DNA of 63,853 nt, filler included, from Basidiobolus ranarum (lineage: Eukaryota), in assembly GCA_040143965.1 (NCBI GenBank). It is 37 parts of 37 records of this genome, joined end to end, with 100 filler letters (N's around TTAATTAATTAA, not from the genome) between each part and the next. Parts side by side here need not be neighbours in the genome. Positions count along the whole stretch, not along the records: positions 48,452 to 50,076 come from JASJQH010011563.1; 36 more parts are not named here. The stretch is one strand, 5' to 3'. The notes below the pieces were generated by a model that saw nothing but the letters and a program-made list of their open reading frames with translations, ran no database searches and was not told the origin of the DNA. Below, piece by piece: positions 2,058 to 60,411 of this stretch. Each line of letters opens with the position of its first letter. Position 1 is the first letter of the stretch. The translations under genes and the position numbers were made by a program.

Positions 2058-4359
2058 GGTGTGCACTAATTTATAACAGTGTTTACATTCTCACATTTAA
2101 CCTGTATCTCACCTATTTCAGCAATCACATACTATATATATCCTGTACCAAACACTTAAGTTATAACCTCCGCTAGCTACCACTGTTACTTTAGTTAATC
2201 CTAATTTATTATTCGTTATTATGCGGCCCTATTGTATTTTTAGGCCTTTATTCAATTTCTATTGAAGTTATAAATAGATTCCTATCCAGTTAACCATCAA
2301 ATTTCGAAATATGAATACTGATAAACAAGTTTTTTTTACTTTGCTAAAGAACTTGTATATTGCAAAATACCTATATATCTCTATACTCTACAGATCGTTA
2401 CCATAACTCTAGTGGAACTGTGCTAAATCGATCAGATTTTTATCTCCTACTGATAGGTCGTAATTTCTCTTCAGCCTATAATGTAGAAATAACATTTTAT
2501 GCCTGCCATAGGAATTATCGATTTGAAATCAAGGATTGCAATAAATTTAATCGGATATTTAATTGAAGTCAAATTGATATAGTGAAATCTACGAATAAAA
2601 CATTTAATTTGACGCAGGTGTCGAAACTGGCTATCAGTCCTCAAGCGTAGTCACATCTTTAGTAACCCGAAGTTTGAGTGGCTTTAAATTATTCAATTTA
2701 CCTAAAAAATAGAACATTCTCTTGGGCCATATATATATATGTGTTTCTAATCTAATATTTAATTAAAGTTTACAGAGATAGGTATGTTGCTTTTATGCCT
2801 CGCTCCACTACTGAGCAGATTATTCTTTCATTGTTTAATCTTGTCAATAGGATAATCTCTGGCCATAGTCTTACAAGACATTAACATTCTTCCCTAGAAG
2901 TCTAGTAAAATCTGCTACTTGAAAGAATCATAGCGTTCCTTTGGTTATATCCTATAGATAAGGAAAGATAAGAGAGATTTGTTGAACTTTACCCATAAGC
3001 TCAATTTGTTTTTATCACAAGTACCACTTCTGTTCAGTCATGACAAAAGTACCATTGGTAATAGTCAAAAGTTACCGTTGTGTGATTGGTTCTAGGATGG
3101 TCATCTTCAAATTTACCGTGATTAGTTACCGTGTTATGAATGAAGTGTCATATTTCAAATCTATTAGTCATGTTCTTGATGTCTTCCATCTAAGCCCGAG
3201 TGTCACTCAAGCATTCTTACAAAACTCATAAGAAAACCCAGGCTATCTTCTGATGTCACAAAGCCAGTAAATCACAACAGCAGACAAAACTCTCATCCAC
3301 CCCTGGTAGCTCGCAACAGCCATGAAAGCATCGGCATCGATGATACTAGCCTCTGGATCACCTGTGTGGTACTTNNNNNNNNNNNNNNNNNNNNNNNNNN
3401 NNNNNNNNNNNNNNNNNNTTAATTAATTAANNNNNNNNNNNNNNNNNNNNNNNNNNNNNNNNNNNNNNNNNNNNTAGGAATGGAAAGAATGGGTTTCTTT
3501 TTAAATAGTAAATTATAGGAAAGATCCCTTGTAAGTGATAAAGGGATATGTGATGCGAGCCATCAATGTCAGGTAAGCCTCTCACTGTTAAGAGACAAAG
3601 AGATGTCTCTCCTGAATTGACTAGATATTTGTAAGACCAATGGCGCATTTCTTGGGTATTTTTTAAAATCCTTACTTGATTTCCCCACCATATCAACTAT
3701 GTATCAGTTAGTAATTGGAAACTTCGATGATTGAAATAATGGGTCTCGTGTTAGGATTAACTTCCGATCTGTGGTGATACCCCGCACTGCACAGCAAGTA
3801 CGTGAAGGCCAAATGAGGTACGTGAGCAGGAGTAATGTCAACAATAAAACACATACTACAGCTGTTCATACGTAAGATTGGCCATGTTATGTACAGCCAC
3901 TGACTGTAATTTGCTATTCGTCATCCAAATATCTTGACCCTTATGTCTGACTGACTCTATCTCTGATCGATAGAATGCTGACTAGGTCACACTTTCAGCA
4001 AGTCTTTCCAAGTTTCCAAATGCTACGAGTGCAATCTAGTAAAAATAATCTGACAGTGGGAAGTGGAATATTACGCTACTTTTATAATTCATTCTCCTAT
4101 CATACCCATAGATTAGGGTTATTATTATTATGCCTTCAATATCTTAAATATCCTAGCAATTTATTAGCAAGATTATTGTACAGTTTGGCACAATTGGGTG
4201 CTATTGGCCAGATGACAAATATCAATTTGAAGTTTGTTTAATACATATTGCTTTTCCAAAGAACTCAAACATTATAATCCTTGGTTTAGCTATTTTTGAT
4301 CACTTGCTACATTTTGGCAACATCTTCTTGATTGATGATAGAAAGCTACATGTAGGCAT

Positions 4360-4890
4360 ATAATTGAGTTCATAAATAGTGGAAAGTTGACATTTATAGT
4401 CTTGTCAAGATGTAAGTAAACTAACCTATGGAATATGATAAAGAAGGTCCCAGAAACATGTGTGCAAAGTTTGGGGCTTCTAGCACAAGTTTGAAAAATC
4501 CAAATAGCTGAATATTTTTACCAACTTAAAAGTTCTCAAAGTAAACTTCAATTGAGAATAATGGGTGATATCTTAGTGAAGTATAGGATAACTAAATACT
4601 ATGCTATATATCACTATATAGGTGCTTAGGCAATGCTAATTTTAACACTCTCCCTCAAATAAATAGTCATATAAACTAATCCTAAGGAGGGTCTAAATTT
4701 CTCAAATTTCTGCCTAGCAAATGGTTTGGTTAATATATAAGCAATTATATTTTCTGTAGAATAATGAGTTAAGTCAATAAACATATTCTTTATAGTCTCT
4801 CTAATGAAATGATGTCTTATATATATGTTTGCTTCTAGTATCAGACATGGGTTCTCTAGCTAATTTGACTCAACTTTGATTATCTTGAAA
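4360..4890 (-). mobile_element. Ty1/Copia (family B) 3' end: RNase H remnant, PPT and 3' LTR
   Basis: Minus strand reads QDNQS...SKHI.IRHHFIRE...AYILTKP, then PPT GAGGGAGAG (4656-4648), then an LTR starting TGTTAAAATTAGCATTGCC at 4647. The LTR is homologous to 29252-29360 and 53760-53950. Confidence 0.85.
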
Positions 4891-5210: not shown

Positions 5211-6846
5211 CATATATTGCAATCTCTGCTGTAATACCTATCTGTAAAGCTGCCTGTTACACTCCTGCTACCAAATTCCAAGTCAATAAAAACAGCTACA
5301 CTTCTTGATTCTGGTGCTTTTTCCTGTCTTATTGACTCTGTCTTTGTGATATCCTACTCCATCCCAACAATCAAGAAGTCTGGTCCAGTCCTTGTAGAAG
5401 TAAATTGATGGAAGGCTGCCATCATAGGGTGCTGTAACACATGAGACCACCTCTGTGACACTCATGACCACTGCTTATCAAGAAGAAAAAGACTTTGATA
5501 TCATATCTTCACCATACCACCCTGTCATCCTTAGTATCTCATGGCTCATGTGGCACAACCCAGTAATCAACTGGAGGAAGAAGATTTCACATTCAAAGAA
5601 GCTCCCCCTCCTAGTCCATATTTGCCAGTCTGTAGAATATCCAATTCATTTTCAGCCCAAATCCTCAAAACTTCCATGAATTCAATATCCATTTACAATG
5701 TTGCTTAAGAGCTGATATCAACAAAACCTATGGTTCATAAACTCCCACCCAGATACTTAGCCTTTGCTGATGTCCTTGACAAGAAGAAATACAGTATACT
5801 CACAGCTCATTGCCCATACAATTGGCCTGTAGATCTACAAGAAGGAAAACAACCACCATTTGGGACTATCTACTGGCTGACCCAGCCAGAACTCAACAGT
5901 CTGAAAGATTATATTGCAGAAAATCTGGAGAAAGGATTTATCCAAAATTCAAAGTCTCAAGCAGGCTCTCCAATCTTATTTTTTAATAAGAAGGATGGAT
6001 CCCTCCATCTTTGTGTTGATTATTGAGGCCTAAATAGCATTACAGTCAAACATTGGTACCCTTGCCATTGATTGACTCATTCTTGGATCAGCTTGCTTCA
6101 GCCAAGGTATTTACAACAATTGATCAAAGAGGTTCTTAATATCTTGTAAGATTCTACCAAGGAGAACAATTGAAACTGCCTTTTGAACTTGCTATGGACA
6201 CTTTGGATACAATGTCATGCCATTTAGACTTACCAATGCCCCTGCAGGCTTTCAACACATGATGAATAACATCTTCAGAGAGTATCTTGACCAATATGCA
6301 GTGATCTGCCTTCACAATGTGTTGGTCTTCCTATACTCTTAAGAAGTGCATAATATTCATGTTTTCCAAGTCCTATAAAAGTTGAAATCCTCTGATCTCT
6401 ATGCTAAACTTGAGAAATGTGAATATAACCAATCTCAAGTTGAACTCCTTGGATATAACAGCAGCCCATCAGGCATCTCCATGGGCCCTAAGAAGGTTGA
6501 ATCTGTTTAGTCTTGGGATACTCTCAAGAATGTGAAGGATGTACAATCTTTCCTAGGATTTGCAAACTTTTACCAACTGTTTGTCAAGAACTTCTTTAAA
6601 ATATCTGCTCTATTAAAAAACCTTACCAAGAAAGAACTCCCATATCACTGGAACCCATCTTGCCAACAAGCATTTGTATCTTTAAAAAATGCTTTGAGCT
6701 GAGCACCAATCCTGGTATGCTCCAAGCTAAACAAGCCATTTATTGTTGAAACTGATGCATCTAACTTTGCTCTAGGAGCAGAGCTTTCATAGTATGGTGA
6801 TGACAACTCATTGCACCCTGTTGCCTTTTACTCACAAAGGTTCTCT
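5211..6846 (+). pseudogene. Ty3/Gypsy pol: protease, RT and RNase H (degenerate)
   Basis: LLDSGA protease, PILFFNKKDGSLHLCVDY, YNVMPFRLTNAPA, decayed YLDD (VICLHNVLV) and PFIVETDASNFALGA. Many stops and frameshifts. Confidence 0.95.
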
Positions 6847-10752: not shown

Positions 10753-10825
10753 GCCCGGCTAGCTCAATCGGTAGAGCGTAAGACTCTTAATCTTAAGGTT
10801 GTGGGTTCGACCCCCACGTTGGGTG
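10753..10825 (+). tRNA. tRNA-Lys(CTT)
   Basis: GCCCGGC acceptor stem, AGCTCAATCGGTAGAGC D arm, anticodon arm TAAGA-CTCTTAA-TCTTA, GGTTCGACCC T loop. 73 nt, with a T-run downstream. Confidence 0.97.
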
Positions 10826-11317: not shown

Positions 11318-11388
11318 TGCATACTCGGGGAATCGAACCCCGGTCTACCGCGTGGCAGGCGGTAATTATACCACTAAACCAAGTATGC
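11318..11388 (-). tRNA. tRNA-Gly(GCC)
   Basis: Reverse complement GCATACTTGGTTTAGTGGTATAATTACCGCCTGCCACGCGGTAGACCGGGGTTCGATTCCCCGAGTATGCA. Anticodon arm ACCGC-CTGCCAC-GCGGT, 71 nt. Confidence 0.97.
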
Positions 11389-11609: not shown

Positions 11610-11691
11610 CGACGCCTGCAGGATTCGAACCTGCGCTCCCATAGGGAAATGCCTTAGCAGGGCACCGCGTTAACCACTCCGCCAAAGCGTC
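11610..11691 (-). tRNA. tRNA-Ser(GCT)
   Basis: Reverse complement GACGCTTTGGCGGAGTGGTTAACGCG-GTGCC-CTGCTAA-GGCAT, long variable arm, GCAGGTTCGAATCCTGC-AGGCGTCG. 82 nt. Confidence 0.97.
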
Positions 11692-13885: not shown

Positions 13886-15390
13886 GTAGTAATCAGGGAA
13901 ATTTCTGATCCAATTTAATTTCCTGGTTCAGGATAAAGGCATTACACTGCTGGCATTGTATTGGGCACTTCAGTTGGCAAAATTTTGTTTGAAGAGTCCA
14001 CAAGAAGGCTATTTTCTTCATTGTATTGGTTTCAATCAATTTGAATGAGTGGATGAGGAGAAAATTGATTTTTGGCATCAACTGAGGTCATTTTGGGTGA
14101 AAGTATTTCATTTTCATTAAACAAAACATCCCTGGACTTGATTAACTTGGAAATTTCGGTATCACAGAGTCTGTTGGCCTTAGTCTGAGTACAATAACCC
14201 AGAAACATGCATTTCTTACTTGTTGGATCAAATTTAGACCAATTTTTGGTCATAATTTTAACATAAGCAATGCATCCAAAAATCTTTAAATGTTGTACAT
14301 CAGGTTTGATTCCAAACAAAGCTTGCTATGGTGTAGAGTTTGACAGACTATCAGTAAAACTCCTATTTTTCAGATTCACAGCTGTAGCAACAGATTCCAC
14401 CCAAAAGTTATGAGCTAAATTTTATGCATTTACCATATATCTTTCCATTTCTATTATAGTCCTGGTAGGTCTTTCAGCAACTCCATTTTGTTGAGGTGAA
14501 TAGGGGGCAGTAGTTTCTTGCTTAATTCCATGAACTTTGCAAAAGTGCCTAAATAGTGTTGAAATATATTCTCCACCATTATCAGTATGTATTTTCTTGA
14601 TTTTAGTACAAGTTTCAGTCTCCACAAGTGTTTTAAAATCTCTAAAAACAGAGAGAGCTTCTCCATTTCTTTCCATGAAGTAGACCTGGGTGTATTTTGT
14701 ATAATCATCAGTAATTGTAATTAAATATCTTTTTCTGCCTAAAGATAAATTTTGCATAGGTCCACACTAATCTGAATGAATTAGAATCAACTTTTTGACA
14801 GATTCAATTAAACCAGAGCTCTTGATTGGTTGCCTGGCTTGTTTTCTATATATACCACCCTCACAAATTTCCATTTTGGTTGGGGGGGGTTAATTTGAAT
14901 TCCAGAAACTAGGCAATTTTTGATCATTTTGCTCAAATAATCAAATCCAATATGGCCAAATCTCTTAGGCAATAATTGAACAGTTTCTTGATTGGAATAA
15001 CTTATATTTACACATAAACCTTGTGGATATATGTAAGCTGGTATAAGTATTGATCCTTTTCTCCCAAAGCTAAATAATTCCCATTTTGATCAGTGATGTC
15101 ACATCCTGACTTATCAAAATTGAATTTTAGCCATTCCAAGATGGCCTTGAATACAGATATTAAATTCTTGGCAATATCTGGAACATGTAGTACATCCTTA
15201 AAAGTATATACTTTCTCTTCAGAAGCTCTAGTTATATTAACTTGAATTGTTCCCTTTCCAATAGCATCCAATGTGCAGTCATCTCCCATGAAAACCTTTC
15301 TAATTGGGATTTCTTCATATTCCACAATCCAATGTCTTTCATTTGTGAAAAGTTGGGAAGCTCTAGAATCAATGTACCACACCTAAAAAT
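13886..15390 (-). pseudogene. Ty1/Copia pol: protease, GAG-pre-integrase and integrase
   Basis: WYIDSRASQ, DVLHVPDIAKNLISV, IHTDNGGEY, TAPYSPQQNGVAER, LKIFGCIAY, SRDVLFNE. Confidence 0.95.
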
Positions 15391-22542: not shown

Positions 22543-24172
22543 CTATGTAAATTTAAATATAATCCAAGAGGTTTATGTGTAACTATAAGTTATTACAATC
22601 AAGAAACTATTCTATTATGGCATAAGAGATTTAGCCATATTGGATTTGATTTTTTGAGCAAAACAATCAAAAATTGCCTAATTTCAGGTATGCAAATTAA
22701 CCACCCAACTAAAATGGAAATTTGTGAGGTGTGTATATATGGAAGACTAGCCAGGCAACCATTTAAGAGCTATGGTTTAATCAAATCTGTCAAAATATTG
22801 GATTTAATTCATTTGGATTTGTGTGGATGTATGCAATATCTTTCTTTAGGCAAAAACAGATATTTAATCACATTTATTGATGATTATGCAAGACAAACCC
22901 AGGTCTACTCTATTGAATGAAAAGAAGAGGCACTGTCTATCTTTAGAGATTTTTAAACACTTTGGACACTGAAGCCTGAACTAAAGAAAAGAAAATACTT
23001 ATTGATATTGGTGGAGAATATACCTCAACATTATTTAAGCACTTTTGCAAAGCTCATGGAATTGAGCAGCAAACCACTGGCCCCTAATCACCCCTACAAA
23101 ATGGAGTTACTGAAAGAGCTAACAGTATCAGAATAGAATTGGCAAGATCTATGATCAATGCACAAAATATATTTCATAACATTTGGGCAGAATCTGTTGC
23201 TACAGCTTCATATCTGAAGAATAGGAGTTTTGCTAAAAGTCTGTCAAACTCTACACCATATCAAGCTTGGTTTGGAGTTAAGCGTGATGTTAAACATTTG
23301 AGGATCTTTGGATGCATTGCTTATGCCAAAATTATGACCAAAAATTGATCTAAATTTAACTGAAAAAGTAAGAGTTTTGTATTGCTGAGTTATTGTACTC
23401 AAACTAAGGCCTACAGACTCTAAGATAATAAAATTTCCAAGTTAATCAGGTCCAGAGATGCATTGTTTGATGAAAATAAATATTTTCACCTAAAATGATC
23501 TCAAATGTTAACAAAAATCCAATTTCTCCTGACCCAATTGTTCAAATTGACTTAAACTAAAACAATGAAGAAGATAGCATTCCAGTGGACTCTTCAACCA
23601 ATGTTTTGCCTACCAAAGTGTCCAATACAATGCCATAAGTTGATGTACCTTTATCCTAATCCAGGAGATTAAATTGGATCACAAATAGCCCTGATTACTA
23701 TAACACTGAGTCCAAAATTGTGCCTATGCCTGCACAGCTCAAATACATGTGCCCCAGACTGCAAAAGAGGCCCTGAATGATTCTCACACAAAATTCTGGA
23801 TATCTGCAATGGCTGATGAGTACCAGGCTTTGATTGATAATCAAACTTGGATTTTAACCAACTTACCAAAAGATAGAAAATCAATTGGCTGCCAATGGGT
23901 GCTTAAAGTTAAATTCATCTCCGATGGCAATATAGAAAGGTACAAAGCTAGACTAGTAGCCAAAGGCTGTTCCCAAACACTAGCAGTAGAATATACAGAA
24001 ACCTTTGCTTCTGTAGCAAAGTTTAATTAAATTAGAATGTTTTAGCAATATCAGCATAACATCAGTTTATTATAGATCAGATGGATGCTAAACCTGCTTT
24101 TTTGACAGGTGAGCTTGCGGAGGAGACCTATATGGCCCAGCCAGATAGAATTGGTGGACCCAGAAAGCCCTG
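22543..24172 (+). pseudogene. Ty1/Copia pol: integrase and start of RT
   Basis: CEVCIYGR, LIHLDLCG, FIDDY, LRIFGCIAY, AMADEYQAL..NQTW, RYKARLVAKG. Confidence 0.95.
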
Positions 24173-27731: not shown

Positions 27732-29250
27732 ATATCTGTTTATATTGCTAACTAGTCACCTGACCTTATCCAGTGACTTTATCATGTGACCTATCACCTG
27801 ACTAACTATCTATTTGCTTATCTCTTCTATCAGATCATATGACCAATCACATGATCATTATCCAATCAGTATTAACCTCAGAGTCATCTGCCTAGACACA
27901 AGTCAATATGAGTCACAAGATTCATAACCAATGATCTCTCACTTCCAAGACTTCAGCTGATGCATGACTCACTTATCTATCTATATATCTATCCAATCAC
28001 ATTATCTTTTATCAGAATCAGTCATCTAATATCTTGGCACTGACTAATTCATTTTGCTATCAAAAAGTATACATTAAGCTAACTGAACCTTTTGATTTAG
28101 TGTGTGTCTCAACAAATATGGGATCTCAACACTTCTCAGTGTGTCTCAACAAATATAGGATCATGACACTTCTCAGTGTTTCTCAACAAATTCAATATTC
28201 CCCTCTCATTTCTATCCAAGCCTAGTATCCACTAGCACCTACAGAACACCAAGCCTAGCTGCCTAGCAAACCTACTCTCTACTGTAACATAGCAACCCAC
28301 TGCTATTCCCAAGACATATATTAGTTAGATCTGCTCTGCTTATATATCCTGCTTAAACAGTTCTAAGATTCTGCACTTAACTGTTTCTTTGGTTCAGTAA
28401 AGTTCAAGACTTTTTATCCACTTTTCTCTTGCACACAACAGTGATCAGCTTTGCTATAATGGAAAAGTTCTTTCATTAATATCTGATTTATTTTGTATTC
28501 CATTTGCAAGGAGCCTGTTTCAGACCATACAAATTTCTTTGTAGTTTACATACTTGAAATTCTTTTCCTTTTGCAATATATACCTCTTGTTGATCCATGT
28601 ATATATTGTCATCAAATTCTTCATTATGAAATGTTGCCTCAACATCCATTTGTTCCATTAGTGTACCTTGGTGAGTAGCAATATCAAAGATTACTCTGAG
28701 TGAGATTAACTTGGAAATGTGAGAAAATGTTACACCATAGGCAATGCCATGTTTCTGAGCATAGCCTTTAACTACCAGTCTTGCTTTGTACCAGTTGATA
28801 GATCAATTAGAGTTAGGTTTCAGTGTTAGCACCTATCTGTTACCAATAGTTTTTCTTCTCATAGGTAAGTCCACCAGGATATATATGCTGTTCTTTATTA
28901 GAGAGTAAAATTCATCATCAGTGGCTTTTCACCATTCTGTTGCTTCAGCAGATTACAGAGCTTGTATCAAAATATCTGGTTCAGAAAAGGCTGTATATGC
29001 AGATATATTCCATCCTTTTTCTAAATTGAATCCATTGATTTCATGCTCTAATTTGAGACATCCAGAGCCCTTGGTAAAAAGGACAGATGTTTTACTCACA
29101 GGATGCTTCCAATTTCCACTTGGTAAGATATCTGAGACCTGATTGCCTGAATTTTATAATTGTTTAAATACTTCCAATAATTGATTGTATTTAATGACAG
29201 CCATATTGACAGTGGGATGTTTATAAGGCAAATGATTGGTCAGAAAATTA
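27732..29250 (-). mobile_element. Ty1/Copia family C: RT remnant, short 3' region, PPT and 3' LTR (28197 leftward)
   Basis: Minus strand reads WYKARLVVKGYAQKHG...QMDVEATF, then PPT GAGAGGGGAA. The LTR matches 62746-63205 and 63355-63852. Confidence 0.8.
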
Positions 29251-29460: not shown

Positions 29461-31089
29461 CTGCTAACAGACTTTTTCCCAGACAAAAATTCTTCAATAT
29501 AAAGATGGAAAAGTCTGAAAGTATGGTTACTCATATTGCAGATGTGAGATCTTGGGCACAATATCTGGAAAAATTGGTGCAACTTTACAGGAAGAAAATG
29601 TCATTATGACTCTTGTAAGTAGTCTACCAGAACAGTATTTAAACTTTGTCACAGCTTTAGAGGCAAGTTCTGATAATTAATCTTTGGAGTTTGTGGTGGC
29701 AAGACTAATTGATCAACACATTAGAAGTTTGAATTTGGAAAAAGAATGTGAGGAAGTGGCTCTTTTTGGAGCTGGAAAACATATCTTTGGCAAGTACAAA
29801 GGTTACAGAAGAAGGAAACCAGGTCTATGCTATGGTTGTAACAAACCAGGACACCAGTTAAAAGATTGCAAATCAGGCAACTACAACAAAAATGAGAAGT
29901 CAGAACAAGCAAATCAGGTTTCAACCACAGAGGAAGTTTTATTCATTTCTGCCCTGTCAGTGAACCTCCGAACAAGAATGTAAGACATGGTATATTGATT
30001 CTGGAGCCTCTCAACATTTCTCCAATTGAAAAACTGGTTTAAGACACTCAAAACTGACATAAACAAAAAAGTTCAGATGGGCGCTGACCAGCTACTAGAA
30101 GCTTTGGAAGTCAGAGAAATTGTAGTGGATCTTGAGGGCATCTGTGGGGACATGTATTTGACACTGAAAAATGTGCTATATGTGCCTGGGATAGCAAAAA
30201 ATTTGTTATCAGTCAGTAGAGCTACATCTGAGGGATATAGCTTTAATTTTGATCAAAATGGCTAAACAATCAGGGATCAAAATGGGATTTACATAACTTC
30301 TGGTGCTTAGCAAAATACCTTGTAGAAACTTCAATATATTAGGCCATGATATGAGCAAGTTAATACTGCCACAGCTGAAGAGATAGACTGTAAATGTGGC
30401 ATAGGAGATTGGGTCATCCAAGAGCTGCAAATGCAAGAAATCTGATCAAAGGAAGTTTGTTTTTGGACTAAATTTTACAATTCTACCAGATCTGGTGCTA
30501 TGTGAAGGTTTCCTATATGGTAGGCAACATAGACAGCTATTTGTGGGATCTGGAATGAGCAAAACTGATCAAAAATAGGGCCTGATACACTCAGATCTGT
30601 TTGGCCCAATGCAGAAAAAATCTCTAGGCAGAAAAAGGTAATTTATGACCTTTATCATTGATTAGACAAAGTATACTTGGGTGTACTCTCTGGCCAGTAA
30701 GGATGAAGCCTTTGATACCATCAAGAAATTCAAGGCAATGGTGGAGGCGGAATCTGGCCTAAAGATTAAGATTATCCATACTGATAATGGAGAGGTATAT
30801 AACTCAGAACTCTTCTCTAACTACTGGTCAACACATGGAATAAAGCAGCAAACTACAGTGCCATATTCCCTACAGCAGAAAGGAATAGCAGAATGTGCAA
30901 ACATATTAATAATGGAAAAGGCAAGATCAATGCTCATGATCAAGATCTACCAAAACAGTTTTGGGCTGAGTTGGTTGAAACTGCAGTATATATTAGGAAT
31001 AGATGTCCTTCTGGGTCTCTATTGGCTATGACACCTTATCAAGCTTGGTTTGGAAGTAAACCTGATGTGGCTAATCTCAGAGTTTTTGG
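29461..31089 (+). pseudogene. Ty1/Copia family A gag-pol (zinc knuckle, protease, integrase)
   Basis: CYGCNKPGHQLKDC, WYIDSGASQH, NVLYVPGIAKNLLSV, IHTDNG, FWAELVETAVYIRNR. Confidence 0.95.
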
Positions 31090-31535: not shown

Positions 31536-32478
31536 TGATGGTCTCTACTTTCTAGGATATCGAATCTAATACTTGTCACTCCCACTGGGTTGTGGCACGC
31601 CAAAACAAATTTCTCTACAATGACCATGAAGTTGCTGCGAGTAGCCAGATACATCTTTGTTGAAATTGGTATAAAACTCTGCACTAGACTCGGAAATTTT
31701 GCAAATACAGCCAAGGTCATAGTCTTATACTACCAGAATGCTACCTCCAAATCGCCCATTTCCAACACTTGTCTAGTGGTTAAGAATCTTTTTTATCACT
31801 CTAAACCTTTTGTATATTATCTCAGCAAGTTCTGTGAATCTCCATCATCACAAACAAATCTTGACGAGAAATATGTAATGCTTTTAGTAGTTACGGGCTC
31901 TACTTTCCCAATGAGTATTAAGTACTTGAATGGTAAGCTTGACCAGGTGAGAAAGAGAGAAATTATAATCAAAAGAAGTCACAACGCTATGAAATTTTGG
32001 AGGGGGGGGAGTACATCAGATGATATTGTAAAGCAAGCAGCTATGCAACCCACGTTTGATTTTTAAGAATTGTTGTATAAATGTCCGTAAAACTAAATAG
32101 GACATTGCTACCTGCCTTGGGGATCTCAAGATGTCCCACGTCTAAATTAGGTAGAAAAAAGCAAATCAGTAATGAGCAATAGTGAATACACTGATTTGAT
32201 GTATGATCCCTCGCTGATGGTTGATGAAGAAAAGCAATATGAAACCTGATGCTTTAGTGAATGATTAAGCAGTGTATAGTGTATGCTCGACTCCATACAG
32301 CAAAATTTTATTGATGTCTAATTATAGAAAATATGACTATTGGTTAGTCAGTCATCAGTAAGTTTCACGACTTGAAATAGAACGTCATCTAATCGTGGGA
32401 ATTTCCATTTACTATATATATAAGAGGCATGGGCACAGAATACTGTACCATATTCCCCTCTGGTACTACTTCAGAATC

Positions 32479-32817
32479 ATGCCCTCTTATACTTTGTATA
32501 TGCTCAACAAGAATTACTCTTCTTGGAGTATTCGGACTTTTCTTGCTGCTCGCCATGTGAAATTACCAATGGAAGTTGAAATGATCTATATGGACGAGCC
32601 TAACTTCAAACAAGAAATTCAGAAGATTAGTCCTAGCATGAAGGTACCGTCATTAAAAGTGACTGAAGACTCCGGAAAATCGTATTTCGTTTGGGATTCA
32701 CTTTCCATCCTTGAGTATCTTGCTGAGCTTTATCCCGAGTTACTCCCCGAGGATAGGGAAGAGAGATCTTTGGCCAGAGCAGTGTCTGCTGAGATGCACG
32801 CTGGCTTTCCCAAACTT
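32479..32817 (+). CDS. glutathione S-transferase (3' truncated)
   Basis: MPSYTLYMLNKNYSSWSIR...ISPSMKVPSL...VWDSLSILEYLAE...ARAVSAEMHAGF. Intact frame to the contig end and a TATA-like run at 32413-32423. The ATG at 32479 is preferred over the ORF-track start. Confidence 0.93.
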
Positions 32818-38769: not shown

Positions 38770-39724
38770 CCTTCCATCAATTACTTTTACAAGGATGGGA
38801 CTAGATTTCTTGATTGTTGGGATAGAGTGGGAGTTTACAAAGGCGGAGTCAATAAAACAGGAGGAAGCACCTGAATCAAGAAGTGCAGTTGTATTTATTT
38901 ACTTGGAATTTGGTAGCAGGAGTGTAATGGTCAGCTTTAATGATTCACAACACTGCAGAGATTGCAATGTATGGTGAAGATACATTTTTGAAGATGGTTT
39001 GCCCAACTGCATGCCCATTATTGCAGCTGGGCATTGAAGTTTTCCAACTGTTGGGAAGAGTTCTCTTGTACTTGCATATTGTTGATCTTAAATCTAGGAT
39101 TCTTCTTTGGACAGGTTCTTGCTACATGTCCAGGAGCTCCACAATAGAGGCAAAGATTCTCTTGTTGGCATCAATATTTCTCCTCACGGCTAAGCTTTCT
39201 GAAGCAAGTTCCATCAATTTGCATTGGGTCATTAGCTTGAGCTGTATTTTGTGTTTGATGGAAGGGGGTTCTGAAAGTAGATGATGAAGGAGAGAAGAAA
39301 GGAACCATATTCTTTTGTTGTTGTCTTTCAAACAACCGGTTGTCACATTTAACTGCCTGGTGGATAGCATCAGTCAAGGTCACTGGTCAGCCATAGTGAG
39401 TAAAACTTCCATTATATTTTCTTGGAGTCCATGTTGGAATTGGTTGATCAGGGCTGATTCTCCCCAATTGAGATCACAGGCAAGAAGGTGGAATTCTGCA
39501 GCATAAGTTGATGCAGGCTTTGACCCTTGTTTCAGTGCATGGATCTTGGTGGCTGAAGTTCTTTCCTTATCTGCATTTCCAAATGTGGCTTCCAGTTCAG
39601 CAAGAAAGGCAAAGAAGTTTGAAAGAAGTGGAGATTGACTTTCCATCAAAGGAGCAAACCAAGATAGAGCTGTTCCTGATAATAGTGTTCCCACTAAGCC
39701 TACTTTTGTTTGGTCAGAGGGGTA
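38770..39724 (-). pseudogene. Ty3/Gypsy gag (Retrotrans_gag, CCHC) and protease
   Basis: LLSGTALSWFAPL...LKQGSKPASTYAAEF...QFQHGL, DPMQID, CLYCGAPGHVARTC, ALLDSGASSCFID. Confidence 0.93.
39000..39045 (-). promoter_or_regulatory. putative -1 programmed ribosomal frameshift signal (gag-pol)
   Basis: G GAA AAC, a 5-nt spacer, then a 12-bp stem TGCCCAGCTGCA/TGCAGTTGGGCA. The protease lies in the -1 frame relative to gag. Confidence 0.65.
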
Positions 39725-48451: not shown

Positions 48452-48667
48452 AACGAAGAAGGAAGCAAGATTAGTATTGAGACGAAAGACAGTGCAGTTC
48501 ACTTTGTACTAGTAGCAGGTGAACCAATTAAAGAGCCAATCGTTCAACATGGCACATTCGTCATGAATTATCCTGAAGACATTCAACGTACTTTCTATGA
48601 TTATCGTATGGGATCCAATGGCTTTGAACGTGCTCGTACGTGGCGATCTGAAATTGGGAATCTCTAA
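48452..48667 (+). CDS. pirin family protein, C-terminal part (5' truncated; missed by the ORF track)
   Basis: ...HFVLVAGEPIKEPIVQHGTFVMNYPEDIQRTFYDYRMGSNGFERARTWRSEIGNL*, matching the Pirin_C GEP...GPFVMN motif and the eukaryotic NGFE..W.S tail. Confidence 0.93.
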   Translation, partial: NEEGSKISIETKDSAVHFVLVAGEPIKEPIVQHGTFVMNYPEDIQRTFYDYRMGSNGFERARTWRSEIGNL

Positions 48668-49219
48668 TTTGCTTTTTTTATTTTATAAAACTAGTAGAGC
48701 TGATCGTAAAAATACGAATGTTGGCCATTGTTTCAAAACTAAAATGGTGAGATTAAAGGCTCTAATGGGTTATTGTTGAACTTCAGCTGTATTTCATATG
48801 TCTTGAATATTATCAAAGTATATTTTAATTAATCTGGAAGTCACTTAATTTGTTTCAAATTTTATTTGTATGCTGAGCTCTGAGCATGAAGCGCAACTCG
48901 CCATTATTCTGAGGTAAACGCCAGTCACCATGATAAAGTTTTACATGGATTTTTGTTACACAAGCTATCCCTATGCATATAGACAAAGCATCATCATTTA
49001 TGATTATTATTAATTATATACCCACCACAATCTCATGTTAGCATTCATTCTTGTGCCTAAGCCACCAATCTTGCACCTACTATGAGATAAGTGAACAAAC
49101 AAATTGTAGACAAACTGGGTGATTCATTGCTGTAACACATCAGTTTTTCTTTTTGAGAGTATAAGCTTAATAAACTTTTCTATCCATAAACTGAAAAAGA
49201 GGTCAATTCTCTTCTCTTT

Positions 49220-50076
49220 ATGGAGCCGCCACTAAATTATAGCAGTCAAAAGCTCAATCGCTGGTATTGGGTGGAAGCCACAATATGTTCCACAACTCAT
49301 GTCACTTGTAGCTAATGTTCATACCCTTGTGTCACATACGTTTTCCTTTTTGAAGTACATCTTTACTCAAGCTGATCCTGAGTTTCATTTGGAGGATTGC
49401 ATTAATGTTGGCTTTTTAAAGAAGTCTTTATGTCACTCCTCAATAACTATAAGCCAAGCAAACAGAAAGCTTCGACAGAATCAAAAGCCTACAAAGATCT
49501 AATACTCAAGTATCGGGATAAGTACTTTCAGTGCTGCTCTTACGAACCAGTCAACATGAAGTATGCTCATCAGATAGCTTCTTATGAAGTGGTAAAAATT
49601 GTTACTGCTTATCGGAATGGGGTCAACCTTCAATTCGGAAACAAAGTTAGAATGTTTCTTAACTTGCTCTTGAAGAAGAACGAAAGAATCAAGGCGCTGA
49701 GAAGCGAAATGAAGAAGAATGAGGGAAGCGAGAAAGAGATTAGGGCAGCCATAAGACAATAACAGAGCATATAAAGAAGGTCAAGCTGGCTATTTCGTCA
49801 AGAAATATTGAAGATATACATAAAGAATTTCTCACTTCAAACGATTTGGATAGGATCTGTTGTCTTTTTGGCTCGTATTCGATAGATTATCGATTTGCAA
49901 AAGACTCAATATATTACGACTGCAAAAGCAACCCTCTCAAGCATATAAAGGCGTATGCCAGACTGTCAAGAATGTGCGAAGCTCTCCAAAACAAGCCATT
50001 CAACTGCTTTCCGTTATGAAGGGGCTTCATACCATCCTACATGACAATCGATACGTATATTTTAAATACTCAAATC
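49220..50076 (+). pseudogene. Fanzor1-like (TnpB-derived RNA-guided endonuclease), N-terminal part, disrupted and 3' truncated
   Basis: Joining frames gives VKSSIAGIGWKPQY...LVANVHTLVSHTFSFLKYIF...FKEVFMSLL...AHQIASYEVVKIVTAYRNGV..QFGNKVRMFLNLLL...SIYYDCKSNPLKHIKAY...CE...FNCFPL*RGFIPSYMTIDTYIL. I recognise this motif series from Mucoromycota Fanzor1 proteins. RuvC is not on this contig. Confidence 0.7.
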
Positions 50077-53739: not shown

Positions 53740-54705
53740 CACAAGTCACCAGACTTTCAACAATATTATCAACTATTCTCAATTCAAATTTACTTAGAGC
53801 ATTTTTACCAACTAAGAAGTTCTCAGATACATATATATTTTGAGCTTGTGCTAGAAGCCCCAAACTTTGTGCAAATGTTCCTGGGACCATCCTTAACACA
53901 TTCTACATGTTAGTTTGTTTACATCTTGACAAAACTATAAATGTCAACTTTCTATTTAATAGATCAAAAGTGAAAATCACCAATTCCTCTAATTCTCCAA
54001 ACCACTTCCAACAGGCTCCCAACTACTTTAACAGGTGGTGAGCCCTAAGCTTGCACTCACTGTAATGTCTACTTCTCAAATATATGGAACTTTTCCCTCT
54101 TCTGAAGTATTGGATGCAACCAATTCCCTAGTTTGGAAAATCAAAATGAAAATGCTGCTGCAAGAAAAAGAACTTTGGGATAATGTTGTAGAGGAAGAAC
54201 ATAATGCAAGACTATCTGAAACCAAGCTTTTATTGCAAGTTAAAAAAGAATCAAGTGCCTTTAACAAAATTTGTTGTGATGCTAAAGACAAATTGCTAAT
54301 TCACTGTTCATGAGCTACAACAGTCAACAAGATGTGTAAAGCTTTGGAAGTCCCTTAAAACAATTTGTCTAAATGCTAAAGACAAATTTCTAATTCAATG
54401 TTCAAGAGCTAAAACAGTCAAGAAGGTATGGAAAGCCTTGGATGACACCTACCAAATGAGTTCTGCTGCCAACAAGATGTTTTTAAGAAGACAACTCTTT
54501 AACTTAACAATGCAGCCATAAACACATCAAATCACTAATTAATAGAGTTACTATTTTAGTGGATGAAATGGAATGCATTGCTGTACCAACTACTGTTCAA
54601 GATATCATAGTTACAGTCCTGAAAATTCTGCCACACAAGTTTCCAAGTATAGTAATGGATCTAGAATCAAGAACTGAAAATTTGACCTTAAATTATGTAT
54701 TGGGC
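53740..54705 (+). mobile_element. Copia family B LTR, decayed PBS and gag (with a 94-bp internal duplication)
   Basis: LTR ends at 54033, then GGTGGTGAGCCC. Gag is homologous to 52024-52630, with duplication units at 54268 and 54362. Confidence 0.85.
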
Positions 54706-55246
54706 TGTCACAATAAGTAACTGGACAAGGACTGGAAACAACAACAAGAGGCTAGAAGGAAGGAGAGTACATAGGTGTAGACCACAAGACAAGACTGGAC
54801 AGGGAAAATACTTTGGCAAGAATCTTTATTGATAACTGCCATTGATCAGACTGAGGTCTGATCAAGGAATACATGAGGCTTATATAGATATTGCCGGGTG
54901 AAACATAATATACTGAATAGGGAATATACTGTGGCAAGTTCTAGTGTTGGGGTGTTGGGGACTACAAGGACCAATACAAAGAGGGATGAAGTAAGTATGA
55001 TCAGGTGACCTTCCATGGCAGGTGTTGGTGGAAAGACACTAAGTATGGGATGACATGATTGGTTAGGCTTGATGGAGTGTTCCAAAGAACATGACTTCCA
55101 TATAAGGTAATCTGGATGAACTAACATAAGATTGCCATGAAGGGATGGCTCAGCAGATATGATGTCATAATCTAATAATAGAAGAGGTCTATTTGCAGTG
55201 GATGAGTATTCCAAGATCAGCATCATGACAGTATCCCCTCCTTTAG
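54706..55246 (-). mobile_element. complete Gypsy 3' LTR (54706-55230) with PPT
   Basis: PPT AAAGGAGGGGA, then LTR TGTCATGA...TTGTGACA of 525 bp, with internal TATATAAG and AATAAA. Confidence 0.92.
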
Positions 55247-57464: not shown

Positions 57465-58663
57465 TCACTGTATCTGCCTGAGATCTGGCAATGTGAGTTG
57501 ATGCCCTAAAAATATATTAAAAATATCAATAACAACTCCCAATGATGCCAATACTTACCAGGCAGAAATCTTTTCAAAATTTCACTTTATTGTAAACAAA
57601 TCCAATATTTCCAGTTGTTGCATTTGAATAAACACCTAGATGAGTCAATATTAATGGGAGTCCTGGTAAAATATGATGGTATCTTGACATTTTCAAGCTT
57701 TTTCCCAATCTATTCCAACTTTGATCCTATCTCAAATGGCTCATTCATTTCAAATTTTCCACTATATAGCAGGGTAAGTGGTATTGGAACATTGTTGAAT
57801 AGTAAGTGCATAGTGCCTGATGGGAAACTCTGGCTCTAGCTGATCCCCTTTAGCAACACAATCTTAGGCTTATGGCTAATTCCAAGTTTGATGTTAGATT
57901 GACTATTTGGTGAAATGATATCAGTGATGATGTTGAAATCTGACCTGGTTCTTGATGGTAAGATCATGGAGTTTAGTGTTGTATTTGGATATTAGTAATG
58001 TGTATGCCTGATAGAGTAAACTCCATTGATTTGACAAAATGTACAGCAAGATAGTGCATAGTGCCCAAGAAAACCTCCAAGTTTACTGATGGCAGGAGTG
58101 TCACCAATACATACAATGATTTTAGCTTTGATAAAATATTGACTCATCTGAATCCCATTAGATAACCATTCAAATTCCACAATCAAAGGCTCCAAGAGGC
58201 TATCTATAAGCACTGGAGATTTAGGTCCAGATATGATGGAGAGTATCAAAATATTATGAATCTTGTACCATTCAGAAGGAGGAAGCTTTAAGTTACTTAA
58301 AATAATTGGCCAGCAAGCCTTTCCAATGGTATATTTGTTTAGCAAGAAACCATCCAGAGCCAATGTAAATGCACAATCATACATATTCTCAAAGAAACCT
58401 TGATTTCTCCAAATCTGGTATTGATATCCATCAAGTATATTGGTAATACCATCAGCTTTACGGTGAGTACTTAGGTATTGGATCAATGGTCTATATTTAG
58501 GTGATTTCATCAAAACTTTAAGACAGGGAATCAATGGTTTGTAAGCCAAATATGAACAATATTTACCCAATTTAGTGATTACCAATTGTGTGAAAAAAGT
58601 ACATGACTTCAGGTTTTTCAGATCACTGGTGAAAGCCAAGCAACCATTTGGACATGAACACAT
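57465..58663 (-). pseudogene. CACTA/En-Spm transposase catalytic region (Transposase_21/tnp2)
   Basis: CPNGCLAF, LALDGF, WPIILSNLKLPP, GPKSP..DSLLEPL, IGDTPAISKLGGFLGH..CxxC, continuing past a stop to MHLLFNNV. Confidence 0.92.
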
Positions 58664-58859
58664 GGCAATCTACATGGAAAGCTTGCCAGCNNNNNNNNNN
58701 NNNNNNNNNNNNNNNNNNNNNNNNNNNNNNNNNNTTAATTAATTAANNNNNNNNNNNNNNNNNNNNNNNNNNNNNNNNNNNNNNNNNNNNTGCCAGAGGG
58801 TGATGGATAGTGCCAAATTGTGCCGCATAAATTTTAGAATACTTTATCCAATATGATAT

Positions 58860-60411
58860 ATACAGCACAATCTGGCACTATCACAGAGAACAAGTCCATT
58901 AACTCAAGTGTTGAAAAGCTTGATGGAGAAAACTCCAATTTCTGGAAGTTCAAGATGCAAATCATGATGGAAGACAGGGAGCTTTGGGATGTAGTCTCTG
59001 GAGATGAAAAGAAACCTTCTGACCCTTCTTTATTGGAAGCTTACAAGAAAAGAGACAAGAAGGCCTTTAATGTCTTTTGTCAAAGTATGAAGGATTAACA
59101 ACTTATGAATATTCAATATGCAAATACTTCCCATCAAGCTTGGACTATGTTGGGAGAGTGCTATGAAGCAAAGAGTCTTGCTAATAGACTCTTTCTCAGA
59201 CAAAAATTCTTCAATATTAAGATGCAAAAGTCTGAAAGCATGGTTACTCAAATTGCAAATGAGAGATCTTGGTCAAATAAACTGGAAAATTTTGGTGCAT
59301 CTTTACAGCAAGAAGATGTCATTTGGACTCTTCTAAAAGGTTACCAGAACACTATTCAAACTTGGTCCCAGCTTTGCAAGCAAGATTGGACAAGTTGTCT
59401 CTGGAGTTTGTGGTGGCAAGCCTATGGATCAATAACTCAGAAGTAAGAATTTCGAACAAGAATCTGAGGAAGTGGATCATTTTGGAGCTGGAAAACATAG
59501 CTTTGGCAAGTACAAAGGTTACAAAAGAAGGAAACCAGGTTTATGCTATGGTTGTAACAAGCCGGGACACCAGATAAAAGATTGCAAATCATGAAATTAC
59601 AACAAAAATGAGAAGTCAGAACAAGCAATTCAGGTTTCAACCAAAGAAGAAGTTATATTCATTTCTGCCCTATCAGTGACCTCTGGACAAGACTGTAGGT
59701 TATGTCACATTGATTCTGGAGCCTTTTAACATTTCTCTAATCAAAAAAACTGGTTCAAGACACTCAAAACTGACATAAACAAGAAGATTTATATGGGAGA
59801 TGACTGGCCACTAGAAGCTGGGAGAGTGGGAGAAATTGAGGTGGATCTTGGGGGCATCTCTGGGGACATGTATTTGACACAGAAAAATGTGCTACTTGTG
59901 CCTGGGATAGCAAAATATTTGTTATCAGTGAGTAAAGCTACATCTGAGGGATATAGCTTTAATATTGATCAAAATGGCTTTTCAATCAGGGATCAAAAAG
60001 GAATTACCTAGCCTCTGGAGCTAAGCAAAATAACTTGTATAAACTTCATTAAACTAGGCCAATATATTTGATCAAAAACAAGATGGTTTTGGGACTAAAT
60101 TTTGTAATTCAACCAGATCTGGAGCTATGTGAAGGTTGCCTCTATGGTAGGCAATACAGACAGCCATTTTTGGGCTCTGGAATAAGCAAAAGTGATCAAA
60201 AACTTGGCCTGATACACTCAGTTCTGTGTGGCTCAATCCAGACAAAATCCTTAGGGGGAAAAAGGTATTTTATGACCTTCATTGATGATATACTTGGGGG
60301 TAGTTTCTGGGCCAGTAAGGATAAAGCCTTTAATACCTTCAAGAAGTTCAAAGCAATGGTGGAGACTGAAAAAGGTCTAAAGATTAAGATTATCCATACT
60401 GATAGTGGAGG
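58860..60411 (+). pseudogene. Ty1/Copia family A gag-pol
   Basis: KLDGENSNFWKFKM, CCHC knuckle, IDSGA, CEGCLYGRQ, FIDD, IHTDSGG. Confidence 0.95.

Follow-up and report, generated by a model that had tools for sequence, protein, structure and literature searches.

The window, by which we mean the whole stretch of DNA that was analysed (63,853 bases), was put together artificially from 37 contigs, each 1621-1637 bp long, which are sorted from the largest to the smallest and joined by spacers of the form N44-TTAATTAATTAA-N44; adjacency across these spacers carries no meaning. Our analysis concerns mainly one of the contigs, the gap-free stretch 48452-50076, which holds the end of a pirin gene and, 552 bp beyond the pirin stop codon, the ATG (position 49220) of a Fanzor1 gene. 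Fanzor1 is related to the bacterial TnpB and Cas12 but is found in eukaryotes, where it is carried by transposons. The 3' end of an intact element is transcribed into a guide RNA (called omegaRNA or reRNA), to which the protein binds; its REC lobe (WED + REC) clamps the target-adjacent motif and the guide-target duplex, and its NUC lobe (RuvC + zinc-finger TNB) cuts the DNA. The features of the contig are given below, its lesions having been placed by a frameshift-aware protein alignment together with a DNA alignment to a related locus, L001, which is described further on.

48452-48664, + strand, stop codon at 48665-67: 3' part of a pirin gene, its last 71 codons, cut at the 5' side by the contig start; Pfam Pirin_C, E 3.9e-14
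49083-49113, + strand: possible inner remnant of a left TIR, 31 nt, aligning to positions 86-115 of the 135-nt L001 TIR
49220-50076, + strand: first 285 codons of a Fanzor1 gene, covering WED and REC parts of the REC lobe; the reading crosses three frame changes and a stop, and the gene is cut off where the contig ends
49234-49236, + strand: lesion 1, an A3 run against A5 in L001, 2 nt short, with the frame change directly after MEPPL
49413-49417, + strand: lesion 2, T5 where an in-frame reading needs T6; L001 has T7 and is itself out of frame there
49753-49754, + strand: lesion 3, an A2 run against A3 in L001, 1 nt short
50017-50019, + strand: lesion 4, an in-frame TGA; Arg in homologs, AGA in L001

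The pirin gene is a flanking host gene and lies outside the element. The initial annotation had placed the Fanzor locus downstream of pirin, and this linkage is a true one, since both genes sit on the same gap-free contig. The closest relatives of the pirin piece are four pirins of Basidiobolus meristosporus (81-73% identity), followed by an animal pirin at 64%, and no Mucorales pirin appears among the matches listed for it. The gene thus looks Basidiobolus-like, an assignment of the host that is based on a single pirin piece of 71 residues.

The Fanzor1 gene is present as open pieces (stop-to-stop) at 49236-49499, 49406-49759, 49744-50016 and 50020-50076, distributed over three frames, and tblastn places them collinearly on the homolog P0002, at residues 7-70, 69-183 and 183-290. 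Since the frame opened by the ATG ends after 31 codons, giving a peptide of 31 residues, and since three further defects follow, the window copy is unable to make the protein as written. Introns were considered as the cause of the frame changes and ruled out: the pieces abut or overlap, the protein alignment runs on without a gap, and there are no intron-sized gaps, so that we are dealing with frame defects rather than splice sites. The earlier proposal that the short ORFs here join into one protein of about 280 aa therefore stands, as 49220-50076 reads in three frames along full-length relatives. Its frameshift near the ATG (about 49233) is found at 49234-49236 and can be refined to a 2-nt shortfall, its 1-nt deletion in the T5 run is supported by both alignments, and its deletion at about 49753 reappears in the DNA comparison with L001. 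What needs revision is the origin of the TGA, for which CGA had been named as a plausible source: the stop does occupy an arginine position, but the nearest DNA relative has AGA there and not CGA, which makes AGA the likelier source. The protein motifs that the annotation had named as typical of the family are every one present and are conserved in the homolog alignment.

We searched 5.8 billion proteins with the 118-aa middle piece, and 10 proteins at E <=0.001 were found among 118 candidates; the best of them is a 247-aa Basidiobolus ranarum protein (E 2.3e-53, 83% identity), a match far beyond chance. Within the window, tblastn with four homologs matched the contig 48452-50076 alone, and blastn of this contig against the window returned only the self-match, with no informative repeats within the contig.

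The family to which these pieces belong can be read from their order along a protein of known structure. Against the Parasitella parasitica Fanzor1 (9CF0, chain 9cf0_P) they match collinearly at residues 516-578 (E 2.4e-4), 578-691 (E 2.8e-23) and 692-777 (E 4.9e-15), in agreement with the Fanzor1-type assignment made at the outset. A full-length relative, P0003 (713 aa), matches the same Parasitella protein (PpFz1) at E 9.5e-158, SpuFz1 (8GKH) at E 7e-50 and the Guillardia theta GtFz1 at E 4.2e-4. The fingerprint described for Fanzors combines a DPG motif in RuvC-I with an alternative Glu, placed six residues ahead of the zinc finger's first CxxC, and a third Asp (PMC10711439). Among the family proteins of at least 550 aa, DPG occurs in 46 of 52 and E-x6-CxxC in 33 of 52, and the whole series of DPG, E-x6-CxxC and WNRD is seen in P0003, P0004 and P0021. 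The strict composite pattern is matched by just 13 of the 52 long relatives because many of the gene models are truncated. The full-length homologs, then, do carry a RuvC and zinc-finger module, the lack of which had been named as the observation that would speak against a Fanzor1. A TDG motif is described as a feature of the Fanzor1 WED domain in the same source (PMC10711439); [TS]DG is found in 50 of the 52 long relatives, with D369-G370 of P0003 nearly invariant, although a three-letter motif is weak evidence.

Domain profiles contribute little to the assignment. Two of the three Fanzor pieces have no Pfam family and the third gives a chance-level DUF1796 (E 0.056), while six homologs yielded nothing above the cut-off, the nearest being a weak Cas12f1-like_TNB at E 0.0011 and 19.5 bits (cut-off 26.3). 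The protein database labels nine of the ten first matches PF26935, a family that the Pfam scan of the six homologs did not return.

Our analysis of the fragment's extent shows where it stops. The contig end corresponds to residue 325 of P0003, and the DPG aspartate lies at P0003 residue 420, some 95 codons farther on, so that the initial annotation was right both in calling this the N-terminal REC/WED half and in stating that RuvC and omegaRNA fall off the contig. The fragment also stops before the TDG motif of the WED domain; it thus includes the greater part of the REC lobe, while the nuclease lobe is missing altogether. As judged from the sequence, 49220-50076 is the 5' REC-lobe part of a Fanzor1 gene, whose nuclease half and any guide RNA would lie beyond the contig end.

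The related locus L001 is a 4815-bp metagenome contig. Its gene agrees with protein P0004 of Rhizopus arrhizus at 99.6-100% identity. The window copy aligns to L001 2212-3090 with 84% DNA identity (741/879), in an alignment that begins 8 nt ahead of the ATG and runs as far as the contig goes. The L001 gene has a 50-nt GTAAGT...CAG intron at 4039-4088, in the zinc-finger region, and its stop codon at 4360-62. Flanking the gene are TIRs of 135 nt, 89% complementary, at 1721-1855 and 4446-4580, around which we found no clean target-site duplication, including no clean 9-bp duplication. The 3' region of L001 matches no Rfam family, and the fold of 4300-4640 is no better than that of shuffles (z -0.69). 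Outside the left repeat, L001:1-906 (+) is an ORF that weakly resembles tyrosine recombinases (Phage_integrase at E 6.4e-4, under the cut-off), after which come perfect 43-nt inverted repeats at 975-1017 and 1192-1234; this may be a Crypton-like element. A second metagenome contig, L002 (336 kb), encodes at 6001-6612 a distant relative comprising the RuvC half only, with 29% identity to P0003 425-630.

How much of such an element remains around the window copy? The DNA likeness to L001 ends about 8 nt before the ATG, and beyond this point the only further match is the 31-nt one to the inner part of the TIR at 49083-49113. Its alignment score is 36, which a single one of 1000 dinucleotide shuffles equalled and which none of the other contig-strands of the window, 74 in all, attained (the next being 32 and 31). 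The outer ~85 nt of the L001 TIR have no counterpart upstream of the window copy. This pattern hints that the copy has been cut short on the left.

The T run at lesion 2 varies between copies in a manner that deserves a separate remark. It is T7 at L001:2423-2429, T5 at window 49413-49417, and T6 as implied by the in-frame relatives P0001 and P0002. The T7 shifts the first 70 codons of the L001 gene out of frame, and in none of the seven Rhizopus gene models from the first search does the start lie before the Met just downstream (MKYAHQ...). Perhaps the run is hypermutable or prone to slippage and acts as a switch for the 70 residues at the N-terminus, which we consider a weaker idea than that of transfer, to which we come below.

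The other contigs of the window carry many pieces of mobile elements. We scanned 146 of the 153 ORFs of at least 70 aa with Pfam, leaving out the 7 on the Fanzor contig, and 25 of them could be assigned to one: 22 are parts of retroelements, in many cases spread over successive frames, one is a tnp2 transposase and two are host-like ORFs. Copia- and gypsy-type LTR pieces (gag, Pol_BBD, rve, RVT_2, SH3) are present on many contigs and, like the Fanzor gene, are often split over successive frames. The features outside the Fanzor contig are as follows.

14035-15382, 28491-28802 and 39383-39724, - strand: LTR retrotransposon pieces with copia/gypsy-type domains
54032-54717, 58838-60008, 22543-24027 and 29681-31028, + strand: LTR retrotransposon pieces with copia/gypsy-type domains
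57995-58669, - strand: Transposase_21 (tnp2 family), an ORF of 225 residues, E 6.5e-13; a different DNA transposon
10753-10825 (+ strand), 11318-11388 (- strand) and 11610-11691 (- strand): three tRNA genes, Rfam tRNA at 62-66 bits, on one contig within 940 bp
32362-32817, + strand: GST N-terminal domain, host-like, E 1.2e-9
1740-2054, + strand: Arrestin_C, host-like and weak, 25 bits, below the cut-off of 27.7

We now turn to the relatives of the window copy. A profile search gave 129 of them at E <=1e-10; many genera of Mucorales are represented, as are Coemansia, Martensiomyces and B. ranarum. The window read-through, in which every break was written as X, is 84% identical to P0004 of R. 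arrhizus (174 residues), 79% to P0001 of B. ranarum, about 60% to the copies of R. microsporus and 39% to the Parasitella protein (P0038). Two of the B. ranarum proteins, P0001 and P0109, come from the same 9789-bp contig, have consecutive locus tags and are successive parts of one Fanzor1 copy: they cover P0004 residues 1-133 and 168-330, and the end of P0109 jumps to the zinc-finger region. They are one broken copy annotated as two genes.

A quick tree was built from 86 rows, namely the window copy and 85 of 113 hits covering at least 140 residues, and a careful tree from 38 rows, namely 33 named rows of the subfamily (5 unnamed ones having been dropped) and 5 outgroup rows. In the careful tree the window copy and P0001 of B. 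ranarum form a clade (support 99/95), which is itself nested in a 100/99 clade shared with 10 rows of R. arrhizus/delemar; the rows of R. microsporus, Gilbertella and Helicostylum branch outside this larger clade. Forcing the 31 Mucorales rows together, a group that was named after the tree had been seen, changes the log-likelihood by -78.4 lnL units (p-AU 5e-78). The data thus show directly to which family the gene belongs, where the lesions lie and that the window copy nests among Rhizopus copies in the tree; that the lesions are real, that a horizontal transfer took place and whatever concerns guide RNA and activity are inferred. Over 274 codons, the window copy and the Rhizopus-type copy differ with dS 0.30-0.51 and dN/dS 0.19-0.39.

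How could a Rhizopus-type gene come to lie beside a Basidiobolus-like one? We propose that the window copy holds the REC-lobe codons of a Fanzor1 gene from a subfamily abundant in Rhizopus arrhizus/delemar, that a transposon carrying this gene would have entered the Basidiobolus genome beside pirin by horizontal transfer, and that the copy would then have decayed, acquiring four lesions and losing its outer left repeat. Host genes compared between fungal phyla are expected to be saturated at synonymous sites, and against this expectation the dS of 0.30-0.51 makes horizontal transfer the simplest reading. The presence of a Rhizopus-subfamily copy beside a Basidiobolus-like pirin makes such a transfer probable. 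The element thus probably came to Basidiobolus from a Rhizopus-like lineage, or passed in the reverse direction. For the more specific statement that a Fanzor1 TIR transposon crossed fairly recently between an R. arrhizus/delemar-like fungus and Basidiobolus, the window copy being its decaying trace, we would put the chances at about even. For the overall reading, a decayed 5' part of a Fanzor1 gene, transferred across phyla and standing beside a Basidiobolus-like pirin, our confidence is high.

Two other accounts of the tree have to be weighed against transfer. The Fanzor part could be a Mucorales contaminant, or the contig could be chimeric, in which case nothing would be said about the pirin-bearing host; Rhizopus is a common contaminant, and the nesting of the window copy in a Rhizopus clade is in line with this account. 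However, pirin and Fanzor lie within a few hundred bases of each other on a single contig without gaps, the DNA differs by 16% from the R. arrhizus-type copy, and the nearest relative in the tree is a protein deposited for Basidiobolus ranarum itself. The G+C content of the contig (36.5%) is also similar to that of the rest of the window (36.1%). We consider contamination or chimerism very improbable. Alternatively, the likeness could be vertical, an old Fanzor1 lineage having been kept in both phyla with a differential loss of paralogs that produces the odd tree. Single genomes do contain many paralogous lineages of the family, and Kickxellales (Coemansia, Martensiomyces) carry it too, both of which speak for this account. 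It accords poorly with a DNA identity of 84% and with the low synonymous divergence, with the tree, where the R. microsporus copies stand farther from those of R. arrhizus/delemar than the window copy does, and with the AU test, which rejects monophyly of the Mucorales rows. Vertical descent seems to us improbable, if a little less so than contamination. Horizontal transfer hence remains our preferred reading of the tree.

A separate matter is whether the lesions belong to the organism or to its assembly. The gene might be intact in the organism, with the three homopolymer indels and the TGA being errors of a poor assembly and a working Fanzor1 at the site. All three indels do fall in A or T homopolymer runs, and the assembly is highly fragmented, with contigs of about 1.6 kb. 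The window copy, moreover, departs from the consensus at none of the 29 strongly conserved columns; of 172 residues only 9 are private to it, and its end branch is short (0.055). Some of the defects, or all of them, could accordingly be sequencing errors. The dN/dS of 0.19-0.39 against the Rhizopus-type copy implies that most of the divergence arose under selection. On the side of decay, the TGA is a substitution and not a run-length error, the left repeat is incomplete, its outer part being absent, and all three B. ranarum relatives are broken too: they are incomplete, at 247, 179 and 204 aa, and two have internal deletions as well. Retroelement pieces elsewhere in the window are broken in a similar fashion (a copia gag, for example, runs through three successive frames at 54032-54717), an observation that fits both readings, and the two host-like ORFs are too few to gauge the rate of assembly errors. 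Weighing these points, we consider an intact gene at the site unlikely, though well short of negligible, and we lean, with some reserve, towards the four lesions being real decay. Most likely, then, the window copy is a decaying one whose outer left inverted repeat has been lost.

What would these results add? Fanzor1 proteins are eukaryotic RNA-guided nucleases in development as compact genome editors, and each new host or subfamily extends the catalogue. The window copy alone adds little, as it is a broken front half and an ordinary decayed member of a known family; the subfamily is already in the databases for many Mucorales, and a solved structure exists in the sister subfamily. Fanzor1 families in Rhizopus have been known since 2013 (PMC3627910), and the horizontal transfer of Fanzors in general is already discussed (PMC10711439 among the sources), while our literature search found no paper combining Fanzor with Basidiobolus. 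The added value lies rather in the setting, that is, in a Basidiobolus-like host and in a copy nested among Rhizopus copies at low synonymous divergence. If our reading is true, it would provide a concrete case of cross-phylum transposon transfer for Fanzor1 elements, it would imply that elements encoding RNA-guided nucleases can pass between deeply separated fungal lineages, and functional copies with a guide RNA of their own may still exist in Basidiobolus.

It remains to compare the window copy with the systems already known. RNA-guided DNA cleavage has been demonstrated for PpFz1, SpuFz1 and GtFz1 (PMC11423790). The first of these, PpFz1 (PDB 9CF0-9CF3; Xu et al. 2024), is of all characterised proteins the nearest to the window copy and is described as an RNA-guided DNA endonuclease with the TAM 5'-ATN and a cyclophilin-binding FRI insertion (PMC11423790). 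The window pieces are collinear with its REC lobe, the full-length relatives align with it throughout, including RuvC and TNB, and its host belongs to the same fungal order as the hosts of most relatives. It differs in being only about 39% identical to the window read-through, as a member of a sister subfamily, and in the FRI insertion of about 100 residues in RuvC, which the subfamily of the window copy lacks, as judged from four of the relatives: chain residues 993-1090 have no counterpart in P0003, and P0004, P0006 and P0010 are only 8 residues longer than P0003 at this site.

The Rhizopus arrhizus/delemar Fanzor1 proteins of the P0004 type (one source names them 'Transposase') belong to the same clade and are 84% identical to the window copy in both protein and DNA, but differ from it in host, the pirin of the window being Basidiobolus-like. 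Bao and Jurka (2013, PMC3627910) described four Fanzor1 families in Rhizopus oryzae, one of which, ROr-4, has TIRs of a MuDr-like type together with 9-bp TSDs. L001 likewise has long TIRs, but a clean 9-bp duplication was not found around them. The likeness to SpuFz1 (8GKH) is that of a more distant relative: P0003 aligns over residues 55-697 and shares the same DPG, E-x6-CxxC and NRD series, whereas the 118-aa piece of the window copy, taken by itself, gets no further than E 0.39, and the TAM is different. The SpuFz1 transposon is reported with 33-bp TIRs and a TA duplication (PMC3627910).

More generally, the full-length relatives share with TnpB (IS200/IS605, IS607) and Cas12 the core of RuvC and zinc finger, including the Cas12f1-like_TNB match below the cut-off noted above. 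They differ from these systems in that the gene is eukaryotic, with a spliceosomal intron in L001, has a larger REC lobe and appears to be carried in a TIR transposon. A bacterial TnpB, with its D-hydrophobic-G and canonical Glu, was considered as an alternative and rejected, as the relatives have DPG and the alternative Glu, L001 has its intron, and all the named hosts are fungi. Thus, as far as the REC lobe allows us to judge, the window copy appears to be a member of Fanzor1.
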